From contig PAAV01000050.1 in the NCBI GenBank assembly GCA_002699485.1, forward strand, positions 8,990 to 32,989: a stretch of 24,000 nt of DNA, given 5' to 3'. Made by a program: the position numbers and the translations under genes. This document shows, piece by piece, positions 3,466-13,786 of the stretch. The DNA is from Chloroflexota bacterium. GTDB taxonomy: Bacteria > Chloroflexota > Dehalococcoidia > Lucifugimonadales > UBA2962. Within the stretch, counting starts at the first letter, position 1, and every line of letters begins with the position of its first letter. The notes beneath the pieces were generated by a model. That model was not told the DNA's origin. It saw only the letters and a list, made by a program, of their open reading frames with translations, and ran no database searches.

Positions 3466-3477
3466 ATTTCTTATATC
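3459..3477. terminator. AT-rich palindrome spanning the convergent stop codons of SDR-2 and the 2-hydroxyacid dehydrogenase
   Basis: GATATAA-ATTTC-TTATATC, a 7-bp stem with a single G:C pair and only a short T-run after it. Very weak as a terminator. Confidence 0.2.
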
Positions 3478-4451
3478 TTTGCTCTCGTTTCCCCAACCAC
3501 CTCTTTGTTATACAAGTTCTCAGGCATTTTCCCTGAAAGCACATCAGCTATTGAACCTGCAGCTCTTGATTGAAGCTCAACTGTAGATTCAGGCGAGTAG
3601 AAAGCTACATGCGGTGACACAATGACATTATTCATTTTAAATAGTTTGTTGTTATTTTCAGGATGATCTGATTCCAGCACATCAAGTCCTGCTCCAGCAA
3701 TCTCACCTGATTCTAATGCGCTAATTAAAGCAGTTTCATCGATAAGTGGGCCTCTGGCACAATTTATAATAAAACAGTTTTTCTTCATAACACGGAACTC
3801 GTTAATGCTAATCATTCCTTTGGTTTCGTTATTGAGGGGAGAGTGAATGGTAACGAAATCAGATTTTTCCAGTAGGTCTCTTATAGGAACAACATCTATG
3901 TCCTTATTAACTAAATCACTTGCGACGAAAGGATCTGTAACTAAAACGTGCATTCCGAAAGCTTTGGCTTTCTCAGCAACATTACGACCAATGCGACCAA
4001 ACCCTATTACACCTATCGTGCTACCTCGCAGCCTATTCATAGGTAAATTTAAATCAACCGAGCCCCATCCTTTCATCTTTGTGTTGTAGTCAAAGTTGAT
4101 CACCTGTCGATTCCAGGCAAGCAAAAATGAAAAAACGTGATCCGCAACCTCATCAACACAATAATCGGGAACATACGTCACGGCAATGCCTAACTCAGTA
4201 GCTTTATTGACAGCAATGTTATCTACTCCTACTCCATATCTTGCAATTACTTTTAGATTAATTGCGTTCTCTATAACCTTATCTGTAACTTTTGCAAAGC
4301 AGGTCAATATCCCGTCAACATCACCTGCTAGTTCTGTTAAAGTTTCTTCACTTCCATCTGGAGCAATAACTAGCTCAACGTCAGTTAGTTCTAGAGCTTT
4401 TTTCTCTGGATCTAAATTCGGGAAAACATAATCTGTTATCAAAATTTTCAT
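3471..4451 (-). CDS. D-isomer-specific 2-hydroxyacid dehydrogenase family protein (hydroxypyruvate/glyoxylate reductase or PGDH-like)
   Basis: NAD-binding GVIGFGRIGRNVAEKAKAFG, plus a catalytic-region Arg (NCARGPLID), an acidic residue (AGLDVLESDHPE) and a His (SPHVAF). I prefer the start MKILITDYVF (ATG at 4449-4451) over the track ORF start at 4553, which would overlap the upstream gene by 62 nt. An alternative ATG lies at 4472. Confidence 0.82.
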   Translation of the reverse strand: MKILITDYVFPNLDPEKKALELTDVELVIAPDGSEETLTELAGDVDGILTCFAKVTDKVIENAINLKVIARYGVGVDNIAVNKATELGIAVTYVPDYCVDEVADHVFSFLLAWNRQVINFDYNTKMKGWGSVDLNLPMNRLRGSTIGVIGFGRIGRNVAEKAKAFGMHVLVTDPFVASDLVNKDIDVVPIRDLLEKSDFVTIHSPLNNETKGMISINEFRVMKKNCFIINCARGPLIDETALISALESGEIAGAGLDVLESDHPENNNKLFKMNNVIVSPHVAFYSPESTVELQSRAAGSIADVLSGKMPENLYNKEVVGETRAKI

Positions 4452-4491
4452 GCTGTTACCATCATTTTTCATATTTGGCGCTCTCGCAGCC

Positions 4492-6111
4492 CTACAATTT
4501 AAAATCCATTCTTTTGAATTGACAACCCTCAACAAACAGGTCGAAGAAATCATCAGTTGTTTCCAATTCTATATGCTCCACTTTCAAAACCAAGTCTTCG
4601 ATACGATTCCTTAACTTTCCGGACAATAGCATAATCGTTGCTCCCTCAAGTGACGCATTTCCAACCTTTTCAATGTCGTCTAAATTGACATTGGCTAAGA
4701 AGCCAATTTCAATAGCATTTTTCGCATTTATATAATTCGCAAAACCTCCAGCAAGATAAAACTTCGCGAGCTCTTTAATCGGCTGACCAAATGCACGCAA
4801 AACAATCCATTGTCCACAAAAATTTGCAGACTTCGCTTGAGCTAAAGCAGATATATCAGCTCTAGACAATGTTAACCCTTGTTCACTAGCAAATGTGAAT
4901 TCATTTTCTCCACTATTAAAAACACCCAATTCCGTCATTCTTTGTGTTCTTCGTAATTCAGCTAGCAGATCGATTAATCCAGAGCCACAAATACCTTCAG
5001 GATCAGCATTACCAATTGTTTCAATTTCTACACCGCTGTTATCCATCCTCACTGCCTCAACCGCCCCTTCATATCCAGGCATTCCAAATTTAATTTCTCC
5101 ACCTTCAAAAGCAGGACCTGCCGGGCATGAAGCTGCCAAAATACGATGTCTGTTGCCGATAATCACCTCGGTGTTTGTGCCAACATCCACTAACATGACA
5201 CTTTCGTCCATCTCATCCATTCCTATAGCCAAAAGATCTGCCGAAACGTCAGACCCAACATGACTAGCAATTAATGGCCCACCATAAACGTTTGCTTTCG
5301 GAAAAATTCTAATTCCCAAATCATTTGCAATAGCATTTAAGGCTGTTGATTTACGTTCCCCCTGAATAAACTCCATTTCTATTTTAGATTTATATGGTTT
5401 TTCGCCTATTGTTTGTACATCAACCCCAAATACTATGTCCCTCATAGTCGAGTTACCAACCAATACTGCTTCATAAATGCGTCTTCTATGGATTTTGAGC
5501 TTGCGACACATATCACCAATTTCAAAATTAATCGATGACAGCACAACTTTTCGCAACTCCCCATGGTATGGTCCACCATCGTACGAAATTCGATGCATCA
5601 CGTCGCTACCCCCAAACTTTTGTGGGTTTTCAAAGGAAGTTGTGAATACAGTGACCTTTTTTTCTAAATCTACTAGATTCATTGCTACGGTAGTTGTTCC
5701 CAAGTCGATAGCTAATCCATAGATACTTCCCTTATATTCTTCTAGTCGTTGGTCTCTATAACATACAAAATCTCCCGATTTACGAGTGATTGGATCAGCG
5801 ACAATTTTACGTTTAATCGAACTGGTGAGAATTTTAGGCTGGCGTCGCAAAACGGAAAATTCTAGATTCTCAGCGGCGTCCGAAATCGCCGCCTGGCATG
5901 CGAGTCTATATGTATCTTTAAGGAATTTCTCTGATTCTGTTCTATCTGTTAATCCATCAGAGCCTTGTTTAATTTCAACTATGCACTCATGACACTCACC
6001 GGTTCGTCCACAAGAAGTTGGAACTCTTATTTTTAGGTCATCCGCATAATCAAATACAGTTTTCCCCTGAAGTAGAGGTATTTGCTTTTTACCATAAATT
6101 AGCGGAGACAA
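4492..6111 (-). CDS. Reductive activator of corrinoid proteins (RACo/RamA-like): N-terminal [2Fe-2S] ferredoxin domain plus ASKHA-fold ATPase (DUF4445)
   Basis: 539 aa. The N-terminal Cys cluster (SCGRTGECHEC ... RLACQ) resembles a plant-type 2Fe-2S ferredoxin. It is followed by ASKHA phosphate motifs (GLAIDLGTTTV, LVDVGTNTE) and a C-terminal LAGGFANYI. The start is TTG (6109-6111). The first in-frame ATG lies about 140 codons downstream and would delete the ferredoxin domain. Confidence 0.85.
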   Translation of the reverse strand: MSPLIYGKKQIPLLQGKTVFDYADDLKIRVPTSCGRTGECHECIVEIKQGSDGLTDRTESEKFLKDTYRLACQAAISDAAENLEFSVLRRQPKILTSSIKRKIVADPITRKSGDFVCYRDQRLEEYKGSIYGLAIDLGTTTVAMNLVDLEKKVTVFTTSFENPQKFGGSDVMHRISYDGGPYHGELRKVVLSSINFEIGDMCRKLKIHRRRIYEAVLVGNSTMRDIVFGVDVQTIGEKPYKSKIEMEFIQGERKSTALNAIANDLGIRIFPKANVYGGPLIASHVGSDVSADLLAIGMDEMDESVMLVDVGTNTEVIIGNRHRILAASCPAGPAFEGGEIKFGMPGYEGAVEAVRMDNSGVEIETIGNADPEGICGSGLIDLLAELRRTQRMTELGVFNSGENEFTFASEQGLTLSRADISALAQAKSANFCGQWIVLRAFGQPIKELAKFYLAGGFANYINAKNAIEIGFLANVNLDDIEKVGNASLEGATIMLLSGKLRNRIEDLVLKVEHIELETTDDFFDLFVEGCQFKRMDFKL

Positions 6112-6156: not shown

Positions 6157-6405
6157 CTACAAATCCCACGCGTCACGATAATCGAGTTTGTCACTACCAA
6201 CACATAAAGCTAATTGGTCTTTACCATCAACGAAGTCTTGATTACGGCATCCAAACTTGGCAGTACATCTATCCTTAACGTTTTTGTAAGGGCATCGTTT
6301 TTTAGATATATCAACAGCAGAATCTGAAATACTACTATATATTTTCTGTAATTTATCAATACTTGCCTGATAACGATCTTTATCAAAATTTTTATTCTGA
6401 TTCAC
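6157..6405 (-). CDS. Hypothetical small protein with four Cys (82 aa)
   Basis: The ORF fills almost the whole metF-RACo gap. It has a GTG start 9 nt after the metF stop, with an AAGGT Shine-Dalgarno-like sequence overlapping that stop. The protein contains no internal Met. Cys pattern: RCPYKNVKDRCTAKFGCRN...LALCVG. I recognise no family. Confidence 0.45.
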   Translation of the reverse strand: MNQNKNFDKDRYQASIDKLQKIYSSISDSAVDISKKRCPYKNVKDRCTAKFGCRNQDFVDGKDQLALCVGSDKLDYRDAWDL

Positions 6406-6414
6406 GGCTTACCT

Positions 6415-7350
6415 TTAAATGTTATTGTTACGATTATCGAGTATACCTGATTCTGCAATTATCTCCGGCACTAATGCCTCCTGCCCATATGCCATGATAT
6501 GAATACCTTTAACTCCAGGCATTTCGATCACCTGCTGTACGATTTCCAGACATATCTTTTTTCCTTCAGCGACTTGGTCTTTCGCCTGCTTGAGTCTACT
6601 AATGATCGCATCAGGTATGACAACACCAGGCACATTGGACCGCATCCGTTGAGCAGATTTTGCGGATTTCAAAGGCCCGACGCCAATTAAAATAAATACT
6701 TTTTCTGATAATCCCATGTCATTCACTGAATCCATATAAGTTTTCAACCGAGGCACATCGAAGCAGTATTGGGTCTGAATAAATTTTGCACCAGCATTTA
6801 TTTTTTTCTTTAATCTTAACGGCCTAAAATCATAGGGAGGTACAAACGGGTTGGCGGCAGCACCTAAAAAGAACTTCGGGTTTGATTCAAGTTTTCTACC
6901 AGAAAGGAATCTACCTTCTTCTTCCATTGTTCTGGCCGTTTTTAACAGGTTAATTGAATCCATATCAAACACGGGTTTTGCTTGGGGGTGATCTCCCGTA
7001 TGCACTCCATCTCCAGTTAAACACAATACATTTTTTATATTTAATGCAGCTGCACCAAGCAACTCTCCCTGCATAGCAATTCTATTGCGATCTCTACAAG
7101 ACATTTGCATAACCGGTTCATAGCCAGCTTTTTGCAATATTGCAGATACAGCTATACTAGATAAATGTACGCTTGCGCCAGCAGCATCAGTAGCATTTAT
7201 TCCATCACAAAGTGAGCCCAGAACTAAAGCGTTACGATGAACGGATTCCGGCAAGTGGCTATCCGGCGAATTTAGTTCAGCAGTAACAGCAAGCTGGCCA
7301 GACCGTAAAACACGCTCTAATTTTGATTGGTCTTCAACTTGACCACTCAT
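6415..7350 (-). CDS. metF: Methylenetetrahydrofolate reductase, MetF subunit (MetVF type)
   Basis: 311 aa of MTHFR TIM-barrel type (VTAELNSPDS ..., CLTGDG, FFLGAAANPF, GAKFIQTQYCFD). The ATG at 7350 lies inside the 3' end of metV, giving a 17-nt overlap. Confidence 0.85.
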   Translation of the reverse strand: MSGQVEDQSKLERVLRSGQLAVTAELNSPDSHLPESVHRNALVLGSLCDGINATDAAGASVHLSSIAVSAILQKAGYEPVMQMSCRDRNRIAMQGELLGAAALNIKNVLCLTGDGVHTGDHPQAKPVFDMDSINLLKTARTMEEEGRFLSGRKLESNPKFFLGAAANPFVPPYDFRPLRLKKKINAGAKFIQTQYCFDVPRLKTYMDSVNDMGLSEKVFILIGVGPLKSAKSAQRMRSNVPGVVIPDAIISRLKQAKDQVAEGKKICLEIVQQVIEMPGVKGIHIMAYGQEALVPEIIAESGILDNRNNNI

Positions 7351-7789
7351 CTTGAATTATCTCCGTTCTACCAGACAACTGGTTCGCCCATGCTGATGTG
7401 TCCTGTAATCTTCGATCCAATGGAGCCATAATTACATTTATATTAGGCCCGTATATTGGCATCTGTTTTGATCTTTCCCATGCAGTCACCCATACACACG
7501 TCATTTCAGGTATGACTTCGCAATTACCATTGTTCCTAACACCGCCGCATGGTCCATTTCTCAAGCTTTTTGGACATGTCATTGGACAAGTCATACCAGT
7601 ATTATGTAATACACATTGACCACACATTTGGCAATCAAATACGGGCTTTTTGAATAAGTGTTCTGCAAGAATTAATCCTCTGTTTATAATACGACTACGT
7701 ACAATGAGCGATTTTCCTGGACTTAGAAAGGCAACTGTCCCTTTATAAATTAGTTCCAGTAAAGCTGGATGTAGTCGAAACATTCTCAT
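7334..7789 (-). CDS. metV: Methylenetetrahydrofolate reductase C-terminal-domain protein (MetV-like, Cys-rich)
   Basis: 151 aa with the Cys-rich block CQMCGQCVLHNTGMTCPMTCPKSLRNGPCGGV characteristic of the MTHFR_C/MetV family. It is immediately upstream of and overlapping metF. Confidence 0.8.
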   Translation of the reverse strand: MRMFRLHPALLELIYKGTVAFLSPGKSLIVRSRIINRGLILAEHLFKKPVFDCQMCGQCVLHNTGMTCPMTCPKSLRNGPCGGVRNNGNCEVIPEMTCVWVTAWERSKQMPIYGPNINVIMAPLDRRLQDTSAWANQLSGRTEIIQDEWSS

Positions 7790-7849: not shown

Positions 7850-8581
7850 TTATTGAGCTAGAACTATCTCTTTTACTAAAGAAACGCATTCCATCGCATC
7901 TTTACCATAACCGTCCGCCCCCATGTCTTCAGCAAATTCCTGAGTTACGGCAGCGCCTCCTATTATCATTTTAAATTCTTCACGAACACCATTGTCTTCG
8001 AAAAACTCTATTGTCCGACCCATATTTGGCATTGTAGTAGTTAATAATGCTGACATGCCCACAACTTGAGCTTTAAATTCAACAGCTGCATCCATGAATT
8101 CATCAGGCTTGGTATCAACTCCGAGATCCTCGACTACAAACCCAGCTCCTCTTAGCATCATTATGCACAAGTTTTTGCCGATATCATGCAGATCACCTTT
8201 GACCGTTCCCATGATCACTATTCCCAGGGGTTCTACGCCAGAAGCTGACAAAATAGGTTCAATATGAGCCATACCTGCTTTCATGGCTCTCGCAGCAATT
8301 AAAACTTCAGGAACAAATATGATGTTGTCACGAAATTTAATCCCTACTATTGCCATGCCTGATATCAATCCATCATCAAGAATATCATTAGCTGAATATC
8401 CTTGATCGAGCGCAGTTTTTGTTAATTCATCAATTTTTTCATTGTTCCCATATACGAGATTGAATGCCATTTCCTGCATCAGCATGTCATCTTTTGTAAA
8501 TAAATCTTGAATATGATTCTGTTCAAAAGGCTTTGCTATATATTGCATTTCGCCAAGCAATCCTTCATGGATTATCGCCAT
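7850..8581 (-). CDS. Cobalamin-binding corrinoid protein (B12-binding cap plus Rossmann domain; methyltransferase cognate carrier)
   Basis: 243 aa. It has the DxHxxG motif (GDLHDIGKN), SxL (MSALLTTT) and GG (IIGGAAV), i.e. the His-on/base-off cobalamin-binding signature. A strong SD (GAGGAGA, complement of 8590-8596) lies 8 nt upstream of the ATG. Confidence 0.9.
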   Translation of the reverse strand: MAIIHEGLLGEMQYIAKPFEQNHIQDLFTKDDMLMQEMAFNLVYGNNEKIDELTKTALDQGYSANDILDDGLISGMAIVGIKFRDNIIFVPEVLIAARAMKAGMAHIEPILSASGVEPLGIVIMGTVKGDLHDIGKNLCIMMLRGAGFVVEDLGVDTKPDEFMDAAVEFKAQVVGMSALLTTTMPNMGRTIEFFEDNGVREEFKMIIGGAAVTQEFAEDMGADGYGKDAMECVSLVKEIVLAQ

Positions 8582-8644
8582 TTATGTTGTCTCCTCGTGA
8601 AGCTTTGGTAGTACGTCTGAAGCGTTACTTAAGTTGGGAAGGTA

Positions 8645-9709
8645 TTATTTTACTACTAGCTGGCCCTGGTTATAAGCTTTTATGTAATTCATACAAAATT
8701 CATCTTCACCTAAAAGCATATCTCGTGCGAATCGATGCGGTTCCAAATCTAGATTTAAAGATGAAGCTTTCATTAAATTAGTTTGTATGGGATCTACAAT
8801 CCCGCTATTAGCACCCACATCTAAAGAAAGCTTTATAAATGTCTCATTAATGATCTTTCGCATTGGGAGCCCAAATGAGACATTACTAAGCCCACCGGTA
8901 ATTTTAATGGCGTCACCTTTTTCTTCTCTCAGCATCTTAACAGCATTTAAATAATCCGTTCCAAAAGAACTGTCGACAGAAATCGGAAATACTAAAAGGT
9001 CTACAAATATATCTTCTTCTTTTATCCCTCTGCGCTCAGCCTCTTCCAATAACCTTAAAACATTTTCTACCCTTTCAATGTCATTTGTCGGCATACTCGA
9101 CTCACCAGAAGCTGTAATTATGGTTTTTGTATCATATTTTTCTACAAGGTCAAATGTCTCGAGTCTTTCTAGTGCAACTGAATTTATTAAGGTCTTATCC
9201 CGAGAAGAATCTATCTCTGCAAGCCCAGCAGCAATAATTTCAGAATTAGAAGAGTCAACACTTATGGGTACGGTAGAGACTTCCTGCACTGCGTTTACAA
9301 GCCACCGCATAGCTTCTTTTTGTATGTCTAGTTTGTACGATACTTCATCGACATTTACATCAAGAAAGTCAGCCCCAGCACTTATCTGACGCAAGGCTTC
9401 ACTCTGAACAAAAGAGGCGCTTTCACGTTGTGTTTTTTTATCTCCATTAATAGCTTCTAAAACCACTATCATGAAATGTTTTATTTGACCTTGCTCGTAG
9501 GGCTGTGTTTTCTTGAACCAATCAGGAACAGAGATATTATTTTGGTTGCCTTCGCTATCCACATACAGAATTATCTCTTCACCATTTTGTAAGGTTTTAT
9601 GCCTTTTACCATCACGCAAAACAATCCTGGTGGTATGAATGTTCTCCCCGATAATTACAAATTTTTCCATTTCAGACAAAGCTGATTTAACCACCTTTTG
9701 TCCATTCAC
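8645..9709 (-). CDS. Pterin-binding methyltransferase (methyl-corrinoid:tetrahydrofolate, MetH pterin domain/AcsE/MtgA-like)
   Basis: Motifs IIGENIHTTR near the N-terminus and TGGLSNVSFGLP match the pterin-binding (DHPS-like) barrel of MetH/AcsE. The start is uncertain. The track start is GTG 9709, which overlaps the upstream gene by 23 nt. TTG 9679 or ATG 9670 (MEKFVIIGENIH) are more family-typical. Confidence 0.85.
   Translation of the reverse strand: MNGQKVVKSALSEMEKFVIIGENIHTTRIVLRDGKRHKTLQNGEEIILYVDSEGNQNNISVPDWFKKTQPYEQGQIKHFMIVVLEAINGDKKTQRESASFVQSEALRQISAGADFLDVNVDEVSYKLDIQKEAMRWLVNAVQEVSTVPISVDSSNSEIIAAGLAEIDSSRDKTLINSVALERLETFDLVEKYDTKTIITASGESSMPTNDIERVENVLRLLEEAERRGIKEEDIFVDLLVFPISVDSSFGTDYLNAVKMLREEKGDAIKITGGLSNVSFGLPMRKIINETFIKLSLDVGANSGIVDPIQTNLMKASSLNLDLEPHRFARDMLLGEDEFCMNYIKAYNQGQLVVK
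9662..9680 (-). repeat. Copy A of a 19-nt exact direct repeat (minus-strand reading TTTGTCTGAAATGGAAAAA) at the 5' end of the pterin-binding methyltransferase gene
   Basis: The plus-strand string tttttccatttcagacaaa is identical to 10701-10719. It encodes (L/M)SEMEK and contains both TTG and ATG start candidates. Confidence 0.9.
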
Positions 9710-10718
9710 GGACTGCTTTGGGTATTTCCATAAGGTTTTCTAGTCGTGTAGCTAAAGGAATAGCGCATTCAGGAGCTATCATATCTACTCCGGCTTCCAG
9801 ACATTTGTTAACTTCATTTCTAACTTCTTCAGGACCCTTAGAATACAGTGTGACCGGGTTATTTATATTGCCAACAAGTCCAATTTTTCCTTCAGCAATT
9901 TTCACCGCCTCAGCAGGATCATTTTTTGAATCAAAATGGAAGCTAGCCATGCCACTCTGGCCGATATAATCTAATCTGTCTAATGTATAGCCACAAATAT
10001 GTAATATCAATGGCACATTCAACCTCTCAGCCATTTCTTGATGAAGTTCTAAAAGAAACCTTTTGTAATATTCTCCAGAAACGAGATCTCCTGTTGCGTG
10101 GTCTGGAAACGTTAAAACATCAGCACCTGCTGCAATCTGAGCCAAACCAAACATCACTGATATCTCTTTAAGTTTATCCAATGCACGTTTAGTCATTTCA
10201 GGATCATCTATGCTCATTAGCAAAAATTTTTCAACCCCGAAAACATGGTACGCGAGAGTCCAAGGTCCCATCGTCTTGCCAACAATCGCGACTTCTTTTT
10301 TAAAGTTCTGCGCCAATATTTCAATTGATCTAATAATAGTTGAGGTATCTTGATGTTCTAAGAATCCTGGAGGTATCTTCACATCTTCAGGAGTGTCCCA
10401 AATTGGCTTACTCATGCGTACAGTCGGCCAATTATCTTTCTGTTCCCATTGCATTTCACAGCCAAGCGCCGAAGATTCTTGTATTATCGAAAAATATGGT
10501 GATATAGAGTCAAATCCTAATTCAGTGTATCCGGTCGCAGCAAGGCTAGCATTCAACTCAGGATTTCTATTCGCTTCAGGGAAGGGTGCATCCACCAAAT
10601 CCATTAGCTCGACAGTGGCTATATTTGTCGGATTACATACTGGAGTCCGATCAACTTTTTCCCCAGATAAAGCTGCCAAGACTCGATCACGGGAGTTCAT
10701 TTTTTCCATTTCAGACAA
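9687..10718 (-). CDS. UroD-superfamily, MtaA/MtbA/CmuA-like zinc methyltransferase (paralog 1)
   Basis: 343 aa of URO-D-like TIM barrel. It has a His-x-Cys (LILHICGYT) and a second Cys 76 residues later (IAPECAIPL), the zinc-ligand arrangement described for MtaA/MtbA-type corrinoid methyltransferases. Start candidates are TTG 10718 (AAGGA SD 7 nt upstream), ATG 10709 and ATG 10700. Confidence 0.85.
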   Translation of the reverse strand: MSEMEKMNSRDRVLAALSGEKVDRTPVCNPTNIATVELMDLVDAPFPEANRNPELNASLAATGYTELGFDSISPYFSIIQESSALGCEMQWEQKDNWPTVRMSKPIWDTPEDVKIPPGFLEHQDTSTIIRSIEILAQNFKKEVAIVGKTMGPWTLAYHVFGVEKFLLMSIDDPEMTKRALDKLKEISVMFGLAQIAAGADVLTFPDHATGDLVSGEYYKRFLLELHQEMAERLNVPLILHICGYTLDRLDYIGQSGMASFHFDSKNDPAEAVKIAEGKIGLVGNINNPVTLYSKGPEEVRNEVNKCLEAGVDMIAPECAIPLATRLENLMEIPKAVREWTKGG

Positions 10719-10719
10719 A
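10701..10719 (-). repeat. Copy B of the 19-nt exact direct repeat at the 5' end of UroD-family methyltransferase paralog 1
   Basis: Identical 19-mer to 9662-9680, in the same reading frame relative to the start candidates (TTG TCT GAA ATG GAA AAA). Confidence 0.9.
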
Positions 10720-10777
10720 ATATTTTCCTTATTAATGTCGACACGTTACAAGTTTATTGTTTTTTATCATCAACTTA

Positions 10778-11824
10778 TTAATTATTTCTACCATTGATGT
10801 AAACACTTTTGGGATTTGCGTCACTCCACGCTTTGACTGCTTTAGGTATTTCTAATATGTTTTCCAGTTTAGTTTGAAGAGGCAAGGCGCATTCAGGAGC
10901 AATCAAATCTACCCCTGCGTCTAAACACCTAGTTACCTCTTTACGAATCTCTTCCGAGCCTTTTGAAAACATTGTTATAGGACAATTTATGTTACCTACA
11001 AGTCGCATTCTGCCAGATGCTATATCCATGGCTTTTTGTGGATCATTTTTTGAATCAAAGTGAAAGCATGACATTCCAGTTTCACAAATGTAATCCAATC
11101 TATCTAACGTGTATCCACAAATATGTAAAATTAAAGGAACGGGCAACCGTTCGGCCATTTCAGCGTGCAAATCCTTTAAAAAAGTTTTGTAATAGTCTCC
11201 AGAAACCAAGTCTCCTGTAGCGTGATCAGGAAACATCAAAACATCCGCACCTGCTGCAATCTGAGCGAGGCCAAACATCACAGATATTTCTTTAAGTTTA
11301 TTTAATGCGATCTTGGTTAGCTCAGGGTCATCAATACTCATCAATAAAAAATTCTGGACTCCAAAAGTGTGATAACCGAGAGACCAAGGTCCCATAGTTT
11401 TACCAACGATACAAGCTTCAGCACCTATTTCCGTTTTAAGGATTTCTGTTGCTTTCAACACACATAATGTATCTGGATGCTCTAAAAACCCCGGGGGTAT
11501 TTTAATCTGATCAGGATGGTCCCAGATTGGCCTGCTCATTACGACCGTGGGCCAATTATCTTTCTGTTCCCATTGAATTTCACAGCCCAATGCAGAGGAT
11601 TCCTGGACAATCGTGTAATGGTGGTAAGTAGAATCAAATCCAAGCTCATTAAACCCAGTTGCTGCTAAACGAGCATTTAATTCTGCATCCCTACATGCGT
11701 CAGGAAAAGAAGCATTCACAAAATCCATTAGCTCCACGGTCATTATTGATCCAGGATTAATGACTGCGGGCCTATCTACAGGATCCCCTTTTAATGCTGC
11801 TAATACTCTCTCTCTTGAATTCAT
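10778..11824 (-). CDS. UroD-superfamily, MtaA/MtbA/CmuA-like zinc methyltransferase (paralog 2)
   Basis: 348 aa, collinear with paralog 1 and roughly two-thirds identical by eye. It has the same HICGYT and APECALPL motifs and long identical peptides (KLKEISVMFGLAQIAAGADVL, FPDHATGDLVSG, QESSALGCE, WEQKDNWPTV). Confidence 0.85.
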   Translation of the reverse strand: MNSRERVLAALKGDPVDRPAVINPGSIMTVELMDFVNASFPDACRDAELNARLAATGFNELGFDSTYHHYTIVQESSALGCEIQWEQKDNWPTVVMSRPIWDHPDQIKIPPGFLEHPDTLCVLKATEILKTEIGAEACIVGKTMGPWSLGYHTFGVQNFLLMSIDDPELTKIALNKLKEISVMFGLAQIAAGADVLMFPDHATGDLVSGDYYKTFLKDLHAEMAERLPVPLILHICGYTLDRLDYICETGMSCFHFDSKNDPQKAMDIASGRMRLVGNINCPITMFSKGSEEIRKEVTRCLDAGVDLIAPECALPLQTKLENILEIPKAVKAWSDANPKSVYINGRNN

Positions 11825-11839
11825 TTAAATCAATCTCTC

Positions 11840-12505
11840 TTACTGAGAGAACCCTAATGTTCCTGTAGTCATTTGACCCCGGGATTCATCCGACTCAAGC
11901 ATATCTTCCGTGCCGCTCACGTTACGGGCATAAGGCAGTACACTTCTGACTAGTTGATCATAACGACTGGAACATGGAAATTTTAACTCTGTATCGCCAA
12001 TCTTTTCCATCTCTCCGTATCGAACTAAACCAGCTACGGTTGCTCTAATCCTCAGTTGCGGCCTTTCAGCTTCTCCTTCACCCCCAACCGTGTAAATCCA
12101 AGTACCATTTTCTTCCCTAGGAGTTGCAAACAAAACCATGTCACTCTTTAAATCCTTCACTTCGATTCTTCCATCAGGTATTGGGATCAGTGGAGATTTT
12201 TCAACTGCATTTCTAGCAATGAATTTAAACGCGCGTGGATAAACAGTTCCTCCAGGGAAATAAAATTCGTGAGGGTTATCTTTTGATATAGCCAAATCCC
12301 CGAATCCCACAATGCGATTCCGAATTTCTTCTAACCTTTCAGAAACATCCTTGCCTTCCTTAAAACTCCATACCGTTACTACCCCGTCCTTTTCATAAAA
12401 ACCGACAGACATTTCATCACCATAAGGGTCGATTGAAATTAATTCTAAACATCTGCCAAGCCTGGCAAGAATTTGACTCACAGATTCTTTAGTATTTGAT
12501 GCCAT
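11840..12505 (-). CDS. Hypothetical protein (221 aa), no family recognised
   Basis: Long ORF in the operon frame, 12 nt downstream of the Hcy-methyltransferase stop and 15 nt upstream of UroD paralog 2. It looks soluble, with no hydrophobic segments, and I see no cofactor motifs. Confidence 0.6.
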   Translation of the reverse strand: MASNTKESVSQILARLGRCLELISIDPYGDEMSVGFYEKDGVVTVWSFKEGKDVSERLEEIRNRIVGFGDLAISKDNPHEFYFPGGTVYPRAFKFIARNAVEKSPLIPIPDGRIEVKDLKSDMVLFATPREENGTWIYTVGGEGEAERPQLRIRATVAGLVRYGEMEKIGDTELKFPCSSRYDQLVRSVLPYARNVSGTEDMLESDESRGQMTTGTLGFSQ

Positions 12506-12517
12506 TTAGTTCCCCTT

Positions 12518-13417
12518 TTACTCGTTAATCAAACTAGCAATTTGTTTAATATGATCAGGCGTCGTTCCACAACATCCGCCCACAATATTGATCCCCATAT
12601 CTATTAACTTAGAGAATCCCTCTGACATGTAATCTGGAGTTTCTGGATATATGATTTGCCCTTGACGTATCTCTGGAATTCCTGCATTTGAATTAATCCA
12701 TACATACCCTTCTCCGCATTCTCTAAACCTTTTTGCTAATTCAGACATAATTTCTATACCATTACCGCAATTCGCCCCTACTATATCAGCATCAGCCGCG
12801 AATAATTCAGTGAAACATTTTTCTGGTGTATCACCCATCATTGTGAAAAAACCACGAGGACCCTTATCAAATGTAGTTAGTGCCGCTACCGGAAGGTCTG
12901 TGTTTTCTTTTGTTGCACTAATTGCTATCTTAGCTTCTTCCAAAGAAATCATTGTTTCAATAATGATTCCATCTACCCCACCTTTTGCTAATGCTAATAT
13001 TTGCTGTTTGAACGCAGCATATATATCTTTAGCGCTAGTTGTCCCAACCGGTTCAATCAATTCACCTGTTGGGCCAACAGAACCAAACACATATCTTTCC
13101 TTTTTACCTAAGTTGGGGTTGAGACTCGCGGATTTAGCTAACTGAGCTGCTTGAAAATTAATCTCATCAATTTTGGCTCCTTGATCATATCGACTTTGAA
13201 CATAAAAATTGCCTCCAAAAGAATTCGTTTGAACCAAGTCGCTTCCCGCTTCAAAATAATCCTTCGCCATTCCTTTTACAACATTTGCGTCTGTTATATT
13301 CATTAGTTCGGGGTCGCCGCCGGGCTCCAAACCTCTTGCCTGCAAATATGTACCAGTAGCGCCATCAGCCAATAAAGTGTTTTTATTTGCCAGTTTAGAA
13401 AGAATTTCCATTAACAA
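12518..13417 (-). CDS. Homocysteine S-methyltransferase domain protein (MetH N-terminal module/BHMT/MmuM family)
   Basis: 299 aa. N-terminal LLADGATGTYL, plus zinc-ligand Cys motifs GANCGNG and VGGCCGTTPDHI, exactly as in the Hcy-binding barrel of MetH. Confidence 0.88.
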   Translation of the reverse strand: MLMEILSKLANKNTLLADGATGTYLQARGLEPGGDPELMNITDANVVKGMAKDYFEAGSDLVQTNSFGGNFYVQSRYDQGAKIDEINFQAAQLAKSASLNPNLGKKERYVFGSVGPTGELIEPVGTTSAKDIYAAFKQQILALAKGGVDGIIIETMISLEEAKIAISATKENTDLPVAALTTFDKGPRGFFTMMGDTPEKCFTELFAADADIVGANCGNGIEIMSELAKRFRECGEGYVWINSNAGIPEIRQGQIIYPETPDYMSEGFSKLIDMGINIVGGCCGTTPDHIKQIASLINE

Positions 13418-13441: not shown

Positions 13442-13786
13442 TTAGGATTCAAACCAATGATCAATGGATCCTGGCCGAGTATCTCTTTTTTCTTCTCTAT
13501 GTAAATCCCGTAGTCTGGAAACTAAATCAACAGGAAACCCAGTATTGTAGTGTTCTGACATTCTCTTTGCTGAGCCTCTGGCATCTCCTTCAACTTCTAC
13601 TTGCTCGCTCCATTGCCATCCATCCAAATAATCATCTGTGCCATATGAACCTTCAAGCATTGCTAATGCGTCAACTGCCTCTTGAAAACGCGGATCAAGT
13701 AAAACAGATGTTTTCCCAGAATCATCTTCTGTTTGGATTTGTATCGGTATCTCTTTCCAATACAAAATTCGCATTTTAGTATTCAT
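13442..13786 (-). CDS. Small conserved protein resembling the Pfam 'Virulence_fact' family (function unknown)
   Basis: 114 aa. N-terminal RILYWKEIPIQIQ and central GSYGTDDYLDGW resemble, from memory, the YWRDIPAQV ... GTD.YLEGW pattern of that family. It is the first gene of the minus-strand block. An alternative start is ATG 13774. Confidence 0.5.
   Translation of the reverse strand: MNTKMRILYWKEIPIQIQTEDDSGKTSVLLDPRFQEAVDALAMLEGSYGTDDYLDGWQWSEQVEVEGDARGSAKRMSEHYNTGFPVDLVSRLRDLHREEKRDTRPGSIDHWFES

Follow-up and report, generated by a model that had tools for sequence, protein, structure and literature searches.

Gene content of a twelve-gene SAR202 operon

Examination of a 24,000-nt stretch of a Chloroflexota genome (contig PAAV01000050.1 of assembly GCA_002699485.1; the whole stretch is hereafter called the window) revealed an operon in which homocysteine (Hcy), pterin and corrinoid modules of the kind known from the methionine synthase MetH are encoded as separate proteins, side by side with two methyltransferases of the UroD superfamily and a RACo-type activator. 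The open reading frame (ORF) map of the window places twelve co-directional genes in this block, on the minus strand from 13786 to 3471. The host assembly (1.9 Mb, 61 contigs) is 90.7% complete, and the nearest loci are found in SAR202 / Dehalococcoidia metagenome-assembled genomes (MAGs), whose Hcy proteins are 75-89% identical to the one studied here. Families were assigned from Pfam and NCBIfam profile scores with the family cut-offs, and motifs were taken from the translations. The genes are listed below in the direction of reading.

13442..13786, minus strand: PF13769 ("Virulence_fact") protein of 114 amino acids (aa), lead gene (PF13769, 46.5 bits)
12518..13417, minus strand: Hcy S-methyltransferase of the MetH/MtgE type, 299 aa (PF02574, 216 bits)
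11840..12505, minus strand: orph221, 221 aa, partner of the UroD methyltransferase (no Pfam family)
10778..11824, minus strand: UroD_A, URO-D/MtaA-CmuA zinc methyltransferase, 348 aa (PF01208, 204 bits)
9687..10718, minus strand: UroD_B, URO-D/MtaA-CmuA zinc methyltransferase, 343 aa (PRK06252 and TIGR01463, above cut-offs)
8645..9709, minus strand: pterin-binding methyltransferase, MtgD/MT2-like, 354 aa (PF00809, 85 bits; PRK07535, 198 bits)
7850..8581, minus strand: corrinoid carrier protein, 243 aa (PF02607, 70 bits; PF02310, 92 bits)
7334..7789, minus strand: MetV, Cys-rich small subunit of the methylene-tetrahydrofolate (methylene-THF) reductase MetVF (PF12225, 92.9 bits)
6415..7350, minus strand: MetF (PF02219, 125.6 bits; C-terminal half of YitJ, 203 bits)
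6157..6405, minus strand: 82-aa four-Cys protein (no family)
4492..6111, minus strand: RACo/RACE-type activator with an N-terminal 2Fe-2S domain, 539 aa (PF14574, 221 bits; PF17651, 130 bits; PF00111, 32 bits)
3471..4553, minus strand: D-2-hydroxyacid dehydrogenase, PGDH/glyoxylate-reductase-like, last gene (PF02826, 188 bits)

The 299-aa protein carries the motifs GANCG (residue 214) and GGCCGTTPDHI (residue 280), with the zinc-binding Cys triad lying in GANCG and GGCCG; together with the PF02574 match, they bear out the original prediction, made from the sequence alone, of a MetH-type Hcy barrel. Its affinity to MetH or to the enzymes BHMT and MmuM was judged by bit scores. Among NCBIfam models it scores 249 bits with the N-terminal half of YitJ, 226 with PRK07534, 185 with metH and 72 with the MmuM type. 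Against the PDB it reaches 152 bits with the MetH of T. maritima and 147 with that of Thermus, versus 54 with BHMT and 27 with MmuM, and the grouping with BHMT/MmuM enzymes that had been named as the contrary case was not seen. The scores also stay under the BHMT and MmuM cut-offs (PRK07534, 226 vs 338 bits; PRK09485, 72 vs 215 bits). We infer that the 299-aa protein is a methyl-corrinoid:Hcy methyltransferase.

That this protein instead acts alone, as a cofactor-independent betaine-, dimethylsulfoniopropionate (DMSP)- or S-methylmethionine:homocysteine methyltransferase with incidental corrinoid neighbours, is highly improbable. The PRK07534 model is named "betaine--homocysteine S-methyltransferase", and with DMSP or betaine as donor the purified Bmt of Phaeobacter formed methionine in vitro (PMC12366255); however, that assay used 200 uM enzyme, and in vivo the Phaeobacter gene is needed together with corrinoid and pterin genes (PMC5764234). 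The sub-threshold PRK07534 score and the weak matches to animal BHMT and MmuM argue in the same direction, as do 14 non-Dehalococcoidia loci with six phylum-level labels, in which a corrinoid protein gene immediately precedes the homologue.

The other two modules were also recognised correctly in the original prediction: the 354-aa protein has the MetH/AcsE pterin motif, as GGLSNVSFGLP at residue 272, and the 243-aa protein combines a B12 cap (PF02607) and a Rossmann domain (PF02310) with the DxHxxG motif, as DLHDIG at residue 130. What did not hold is their reading as pieces split off from MetH. The closest PDB entry to the pterin methyltransferase is the O-demethylase MT2 of D. hafniense (4o0q, 124 bits), ahead of AcsE/MeTr (94) and MetH (66), and the best NCBIfam match of the corrinoid protein is MtgC (196 bits). 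The separate proteins lie far under the MetH cut-off of TIGR02082 (185, 103 and 130 vs 1011 bits). Since the pterin methyltransferase is nearest to 4o0q and the corrinoid protein to MtgC, the parts are, on sequence similarity, demethylase-type modules built around a MetH-type Hcy module and not simply a fragmented MetH.

The true start of the pterin methyltransferase is probably an internal TTG near 9679 and not the GTG at 9709, because orthologue alignments begin only at query residue 5-17. UroD_B begins with MSEMEK, and residues 11-16 of the pterin methyltransferase ORF, where the orthologue alignment begins, read LSEMEK; this likeness fits a repeat of 19 nt shared by the two translation starts (9662-9680 and 10701-10719).

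The activator gene is AcsV-like (304 bits). As predicted, a RACo gene stands in the same block (PF14574, PF17651), although at 4492-6111 it falls outside the interval 7850-13417 to which the prediction referred. The metV and metF ORFs overlap by 17 nt (7334-7350). Promoter and terminator scans gave results no better than shuffled sequence.

Methionine synthesis genes in the host and across the order

A survey of the host assembly found no match to PF02965, the activation domain of MetH, and a single PF02574 gene, that of the operon. The check for a canonical metH elsewhere in the genome, proposed with the original prediction, gave none, and the absence of a module binding S-adenosylmethionine (AdoMet) for reactivation, first noted for the block, extends to the whole assembly. 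The operon's metF is the only methylene-THF reductase (MTHFR; PF02219) gene of the genome. Two pterin-binding genes are present, one being the operon's pterin methyltransferase and the other, with a 238-bit PF00809 match, being read as folP. Both URO-D genes of the genome lie in the operon, and the same search found no hemE-type uroporphyrinogen decarboxylase in the 91%-complete genome. No MttB family gene (PF06253) was found in the assembly, and none with a match to DUF1638 (PF07796).

The proposed check for metE had a mixed outcome: there is no full-length MetE, but two short genes with a MetE catalytic domain are present. One of them encodes a full-length 339-aa core-MetE-like protein (L002:1480-2499, contig C28) with His-x-Cys and a C-terminal Cys. 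It is closest to the MesD-type structure 3rpd (108 bits) and lies under every curated methionine synthase cut-off (best 210 vs 406 bits); its adjacent genes encode an aconitase-like protein and a Peptidase_C69, not DUF1852. With these short genes present, the split system cannot be proven to be the only methionine synthase of this genome.

The phyletic pattern was examined in one set of 251 genomes from the order, searched for every marker, with orph221 marking the cluster, PF02965 marking MetH, and thresholds of E <= 1e-30 for the pterin methyltransferase and E <= 1e-50 for the core-MetE-like orthologue. Orph221 was found in 124/251 genomes, PF02965 in 75/251, the 354-aa pterin methyltransferase in 89/251 and the core-MetE-like orthologue in 79/251. 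Pterin methyltransferase and MetH never occur together (0/251), and 87 of the 89 genomes with the pterin methyltransferase also have orph221. The cluster does coexist with MetH in 26 genomes, none of which (0/26) has the pterin methyltransferase; another 11 have the cluster without MetH and without the pterin methyltransferase, and 27 have cluster and pterin methyltransferase with neither MetH nor a core-MetE-like orthologue. This exclusion across the order supports a replacement of MetH by the split system.

The same pattern is visible by family, where none of the 30 families listed has both MetH and the pterin methyltransferase. In families f1 and f95 every genome has orph221 and the pterin methyltransferase and none has MetH (9/9, 9/9 and 0/9; 10/10, 10/10 and 0/10, respectively), whereas MetH is present and the pterin methyltransferase absent throughout f90 and f101 (10/10 and 0/10 in both), with orph221 in 9/10 and 10/10 genomes. 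Four of the five complete chromosomes combine a MetH of 1173-1207 aa with the cluster and have no stand-alone pterin methyltransferase; the fifth has no MetH, and its 354-aa pterin methyltransferase lies elsewhere in the genome. At class level orph221 was found in 8/301, all in this order. MTHFR is near-universal in the order (237/251) and uninformative as a profile. In family f2, to which the genome of locus L019 belongs, 8/10 genomes have the cluster and the pterin methyltransferase but lack MetH and, at E <= 1e-10, any MTHFR.

Taken with the observed gene content, this distribution suggests that the operon probably encodes a cobalamin-dependent methyl-transfer hub of separate proteins arranged round one carrier, standing in for MetH in this SAR202 lineage. 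In the predicted sequence of steps, MetVF would reduce methylene-THF to methyl-THF, the pterin methyltransferase would use this to methylate Co(I) of the corrinoid protein, and the MetH-type Hcy methyltransferase would transfer the methyl group from the carrier to homocysteine, giving methionine. RACo, with ATP, would re-reduce oxidised Co(II), replacing the AdoMet-dependent activation domain of MetH. That this chain is a working replacement of MetH is suggested because the pterin methyltransferase and MetH never co-occur and because 87 of 89 genomes with the former carry the cluster.

Several points weigh against this proposal. The pterin and corrinoid modules are more like parts of catabolic demethylases than like MetH. 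In a genome that is 90.7% complete the absence of MetH from the assembly is not conclusive by itself, although MetH was found in 0/9 other genomes of the same family. The 339-aa core-MetE-like protein could be a second methionine synthase, or the real one, and its orthologues co-occur with the cluster in 75 of their 79 genomes. No riboswitch was found in the whole window at gathering thresholds or in the leader region at E <= 1, so that the operon lacks the SAM, cobalamin or THF riboswitch that would have pointed to biosynthesis. Kinship among the genomes means that they are not independent samples, and the zero overlap and the Fisher p-values overstate the statistical strength of the exclusion. 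Core-MetE-like orthologues, near-confined to cluster genomes, also occur in MetH-bearing ones; the same corrinoid carrier may supply this protein with methyl groups.

UroD methyltransferases, orph221 and the conserved core

UroD_A and UroD_B are 71% identical, and both combine His-x-Cys (HIC; at residue 234 in UroD_A) with a C-terminal Cys in APECA, forming a His-Cys-Cys zinc site. UroD_B exceeds the cut-offs of PRK06252 (269.7 bits; cut-off 244) and TIGR01463 (259 bits; cut-off 235.4), with UroD_A marginally under both (231 and 223 bits). UroD_B scores 185 bits with the MtaA of M. mazei (PDB 4ay7), and the UroD scores remain below the equivalog cut-offs for MtaA (240 vs 400) and MtbA (199 vs 600). 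Homologue searches with UroD_B returned only generic "MtaA/CmuA family" names; tblastn of plasmids for a CmuA-like relative found only generic UroD proteins with 26-28% identity, and no similarity to plasmid-borne cmuA was better than E = 1e-10. Among the loci compared UroD_A is found only in the SAR202 loci L008-L012 and is a SAR202-specific duplicate.

The carrier of the proposed methionine branch would also serve both MtaA-type enzymes, and the methyl group of their compound would reach methionine and perhaps also the folate pool. Within this superfamily, zinc sites of the His-Cys-Cys kind are diagnostic of methyl transfer to or from S or Se (PMC10418091), so the compound with which the UroD enzymes and orph221 would exchange methyl groups is, by analogy, a soft-atom one, most likely a methylated thiol or selenol; a methyl halide is possibly the partner.

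The gene orph221 lies directly upstream of UroD in all distant metagenome loci. Twelve orthologues gave no Pfam match even at E = 10. The AlphaFold2 (AF2) model (pLDDT 86) is an alpha+beta fold with an internal duplication, for which Foldseek found no PDB match <= 1e-3 and a wide VIA-align search only generic alpha+beta matches (best Z 7.0, over half of the model); the ESM Atlas held no usable match. A hidden MetH activation domain was considered and rejected, hhalign against the PF02965-like protein of locus L022 giving a probability of 0.05%. The family comprises 236 representative clusters among 1.84 billion proteins, and its C-terminal tail is invariant, as RGQMTTGTLGF in Dehalococcoidia and RG-x-L-x-APSAQ in distant members.

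The full operon is syntenic in loci L008-L012. Other Dehalococcoidia show the order (PF13769)-Hcy methyltransferase-orph221-UroD-corrinoid protein-82-aa protein-RACo-dehydrogenase, mostly without a nearby pterin methyltransferase, MetVF or second UroD. When metagenomes were scanned with a distant orph221 relative from a cluster that also contains a "Rhodospirillales" MAG protein, the loci obtained had the order orph221-UroD-corrinoid protein-82-aa protein-RACo-[MetF-MetV]-pterin methyltransferase-Hcy methyltransferase-PF13769. Relative to the window, these are 64-76% identical in UroD, 58-65% in the corrinoid protein, 26-34% in the Hcy methyltransferase and 22-28% in orph221, apart from the closer L089 and L097 (44-47%). 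By sequence, orph221, UroD, the carrier, the 82-aa protein and RACo form a constant core that recurs across phyla. The original prediction had regarded the UroD pair and the orphan gene as an unusual insertion between the Hcy and pterin modules; they belong instead to this core, kept in Dehalococcoidia and in the distant metagenome loci. In several non-SAR202 Dehalococcoidia (among L014-L020), genes for DUF4268 and DUF433 are inserted between orph221 and UroD, and look like toxin-antitoxin or mobile-type genes.

The likeness of several parts to demethylase components raises the alternative of a purely catabolic system, in which UroD would act as the first methyltransferase (MT1) and the pterin methyltransferase as the second (MT2), with THF receiving, by way of the carrier kept active by RACo, the methyl groups of a methyl halide, a methoxy compound or a sulfonium compound, MetVF working oxidatively as in CmuAB-MetF2 or O-demethylases, and the core-MetE-like protein making methionine. 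Its supports are the proximity of the pterin methyltransferase to 4o0q and of the corrinoid protein to MtgC, the RACE-type activator, and the core-MetE-like gene with zinc ligands in the genome. It is nevertheless improbable, since it leaves unexplained both the fixed MetH-type Hcy methyltransferase of the operon and the exclusion between pterin methyltransferase and MetH (0/251); moreover, 27 of the genomes with cluster and pterin methyltransferase lack a core-MetE-like orthologue, and the operon's metF is the genome's only MTHFR. Methyl transfer from a thioether to THF is in addition thermodynamically uphill, by analogy with methyl-tetrahydromethanopterin:coenzyme M (CoM) transfer (about -30 kJ/mol), so that a sulfur-bound methyl group would more plausibly go to homocysteine than to folate. 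The oxidation of methyl-THF proposed for MetF2 of the Ruegeria system favours the catabolic direction (PMC12478193), and the His-Cys-Cys site speaks against an O-demethylase (PMC10418091).

The conservation of the core bears on another alternative, that core and Hcy methyltransferase served ancestrally, and still serve mainly, in folate-independent methionine synthesis or methyl salvage, with UroD taking the methyl group from a methylated thiol, selenol or halide and the Hcy methyltransferase placing it on homocysteine, and that pterin methyltransferase and MetVF joined them later. Across phyla no parts are better conserved than UroD and the corrinoid protein, the UroD zinc site is His-Cys-Cys, sister systems join a corrinoid protein and Hcy methyltransferase to MttB with no pterin module, and clusters without any pterin methyltransferase occur in 26 MetH-keeping genomes, a distribution that suggests folate-independent flow as an older core function. 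This reading is nevertheless unlikely: in the SAR202 genome, which has no MetH, the operon includes the pterin methyltransferase and the sole MTHFR, and the cell would need the folate branch unless there were an outside methyl donor; the operon contains no transporter and offers no candidate substrate. It also overlaps with the hub proposed above, from which it differs only in emphasis.

A wider scenario can be put forward tentatively. The five-gene core (orph221, MtaA-type UroD, corrinoid protein, 82-aa protein and RACo) with the Hcy methyltransferase might constitute an undescribed folate-independent route to methionine, its methyl source being a methylated compound of sulfur, selenium or a halide in the environment, for example methanethiol, dimethyl sulfide (DMS), methylmercaptopropionate (MMPA), methylselenides or methyl halides. 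Such a route would be widespread in SAR202 and in other uncultured marine and soil bacteria, and MetH-less SAR202 would later have added the pterin methyltransferase and MetVF, making it their main methionine synthase.

Relation to known systems and sister modules

The overall design is already known from roseobacters; the SAR202 cluster varies it in donor enzyme, partner proteins and single-operon layout. In Phaeobacter, genetics pointed to a three-part MetH with a RamA-like activator (PMC5764234), and in Ruegeria MtgC and MtgD are required for both methionine synthesis and betaine demethylation (PMC12478193). Like the split MetH/MtgBCDE of Phaeobacter inhibens and Ruegeria pomeroyi, the SAR202 system has separate Hcy, pterin and corrinoid proteins, no PF02965, an ATP-dependent activator of the RamA/RACo type and a dedicated MTHFR nearby. 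Canonical MetH is missing from most carrier genomes, as in the roseobacter case, and the carrier would be shared in both between methionine synthesis and a substrate-specific methyltransferase. The SAR202 donor enzyme is, however, of the UroD/MtaA type with a His-Cys-Cys zinc site and not an MttB-type MtgB; three conserved proteins (orph221, the 82-aa four-Cys protein and PF13769) are added; all parts including MetVF stand in a single operon, the host is a member of the Chloroflexota and the activator has a 2Fe-2S domain. Phaeobacter moreover needs a DUF1638 partner, which has no counterpart in the SAR202 genome, a further point against a MetH-replacing hub.

With canonical MetH (TIGR02082) the system shares the Cys triad of the Hcy module, the pterin motif GGLSN and the B12 motif DxHxxG, so the same chemistry would be expected; it differs in not being one polypeptide, in having no AdoMet activation domain and in pterin and B12 modules nearer to MT2 and MtgC. 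The combination of a UroD-superfamily enzyme, carrier, MT2, MTHFR and RACE activator recalls CmuA/CmuB/MetF2 and the anaerobic demethylases composed of MT1, corrinoid protein, MT2 and activating enzyme (O-demethylases, CdmBCA; PMC13222342). Unlike the chloromethane and O-demethylase systems, the SAR202 cassette includes a MetH-type Hcy methyltransferase, and where the O-demethylases and CdmB have carboxylate or metal-free sites, its UroD enzymes have His-Cys-Cys, as do the CoM methyltransferases.

A likeness in features, not in orthology, also exists with the type 1 mlp clusters of anaerobes, for which Kountz and Balskus proposed a methyl-S or methyl-Se role: there a corrinoid protein and a RACE activator accompany MtaA-like His-Cys-Cys enzymes in a core without a folate methyltransferase (PMC10418091). 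The SAR202 cassette has one or two UroD copies instead of the Mlp1/2/3 trio, and the Hcy methyltransferase, orph221 and PF13769 are added. The mlp clusters occur in obligate anaerobes, unlike SAR202, whose lineages are generally regarded as aerobic. A literature search found no description of this cluster for SAR202.

In the dark ocean few bacterial groups are as abundant as SAR202. Should the hub be its methionine synthase, these cells would rely on cobalamin and on an ATP-driven activator for their methionine, and surveys seeking only MetH or MetE would wrongly score them as methionine auxotrophs. The MtaA-type arm and the new partner proteins would suggest that methionine synthesis is tied, in a way so far overlooked, to some methylated compound of sulfur, selenium or a halogen in seawater.

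Outside Dehalococcoidia the nearest relatives of the Hcy methyltransferase are 36-41% identical. In 13 loci a stand-alone MetH-activation-like protein (32.5 bits to PF02965, above the cut-off) lies beside an MttB-family methyltransferase. In L022-L047 the module reads corrinoid protein, Hcy methyltransferase, MetH-activation-like protein (~230 aa) and MttB, under MAG labels that include Acidobacteriota/Terriglobia, Krumholzibacteriota, Planctomycetota and Myxococcota, among others. The module has an MttB donor and a PF02965-like activator where the SAR202 operon has UroD and RACo, and gives the impression of a corrinoid-dependent quaternary-amine:homocysteine methyltransferase. The comparison suggests that this Hcy methyltransferase family works with corrinoid carriers and that donor enzyme (UroD or MttB) and activator (RACo or a MetH-type activation domain) are both swapped as modules; interchangeable activators fit the original idea that RACo takes over from the AdoMet reactivation domain.

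Two small proteins accompany the SAR202 cassette. The 82-aa four-Cys protein holds the same place in all Dehalococcoidia and distant metagenome loci (33-95% identity), always between the corrinoid protein and RACo genes, and may assist RACo as a small protein that binds metal or transfers electrons. The PF13769 gene always adjoins that of the Hcy methyltransferase, which it precedes in Dehalococcoidia and follows in the distant metagenome loci; the AF2 model of its product (pLDDT 81) has no fold match in the PDB by Foldseek, and the name "virulence factor" looks like a misnomer. The terminal dehydrogenase, whose gene is syntenic in Dehalococcoidia loci, scores 247 bits with PGDH and 230 bits with glyoxylate reductase, both under cut-off. 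A 2-hydroxyacid dehydrogenase, echoing the one that ends the SAR202 operon, also stands beside the Hcy methyltransferase in L035-L037 and L039 (MAG labels Acidobacteriota, Eubacteriales and Aminicenantes), where the Hcy methyltransferase region is preceded by a ~400-aa N-terminal region without a Pfam family; in L035 (8804-10885) the two regions are fused in one 693-aa ORF.

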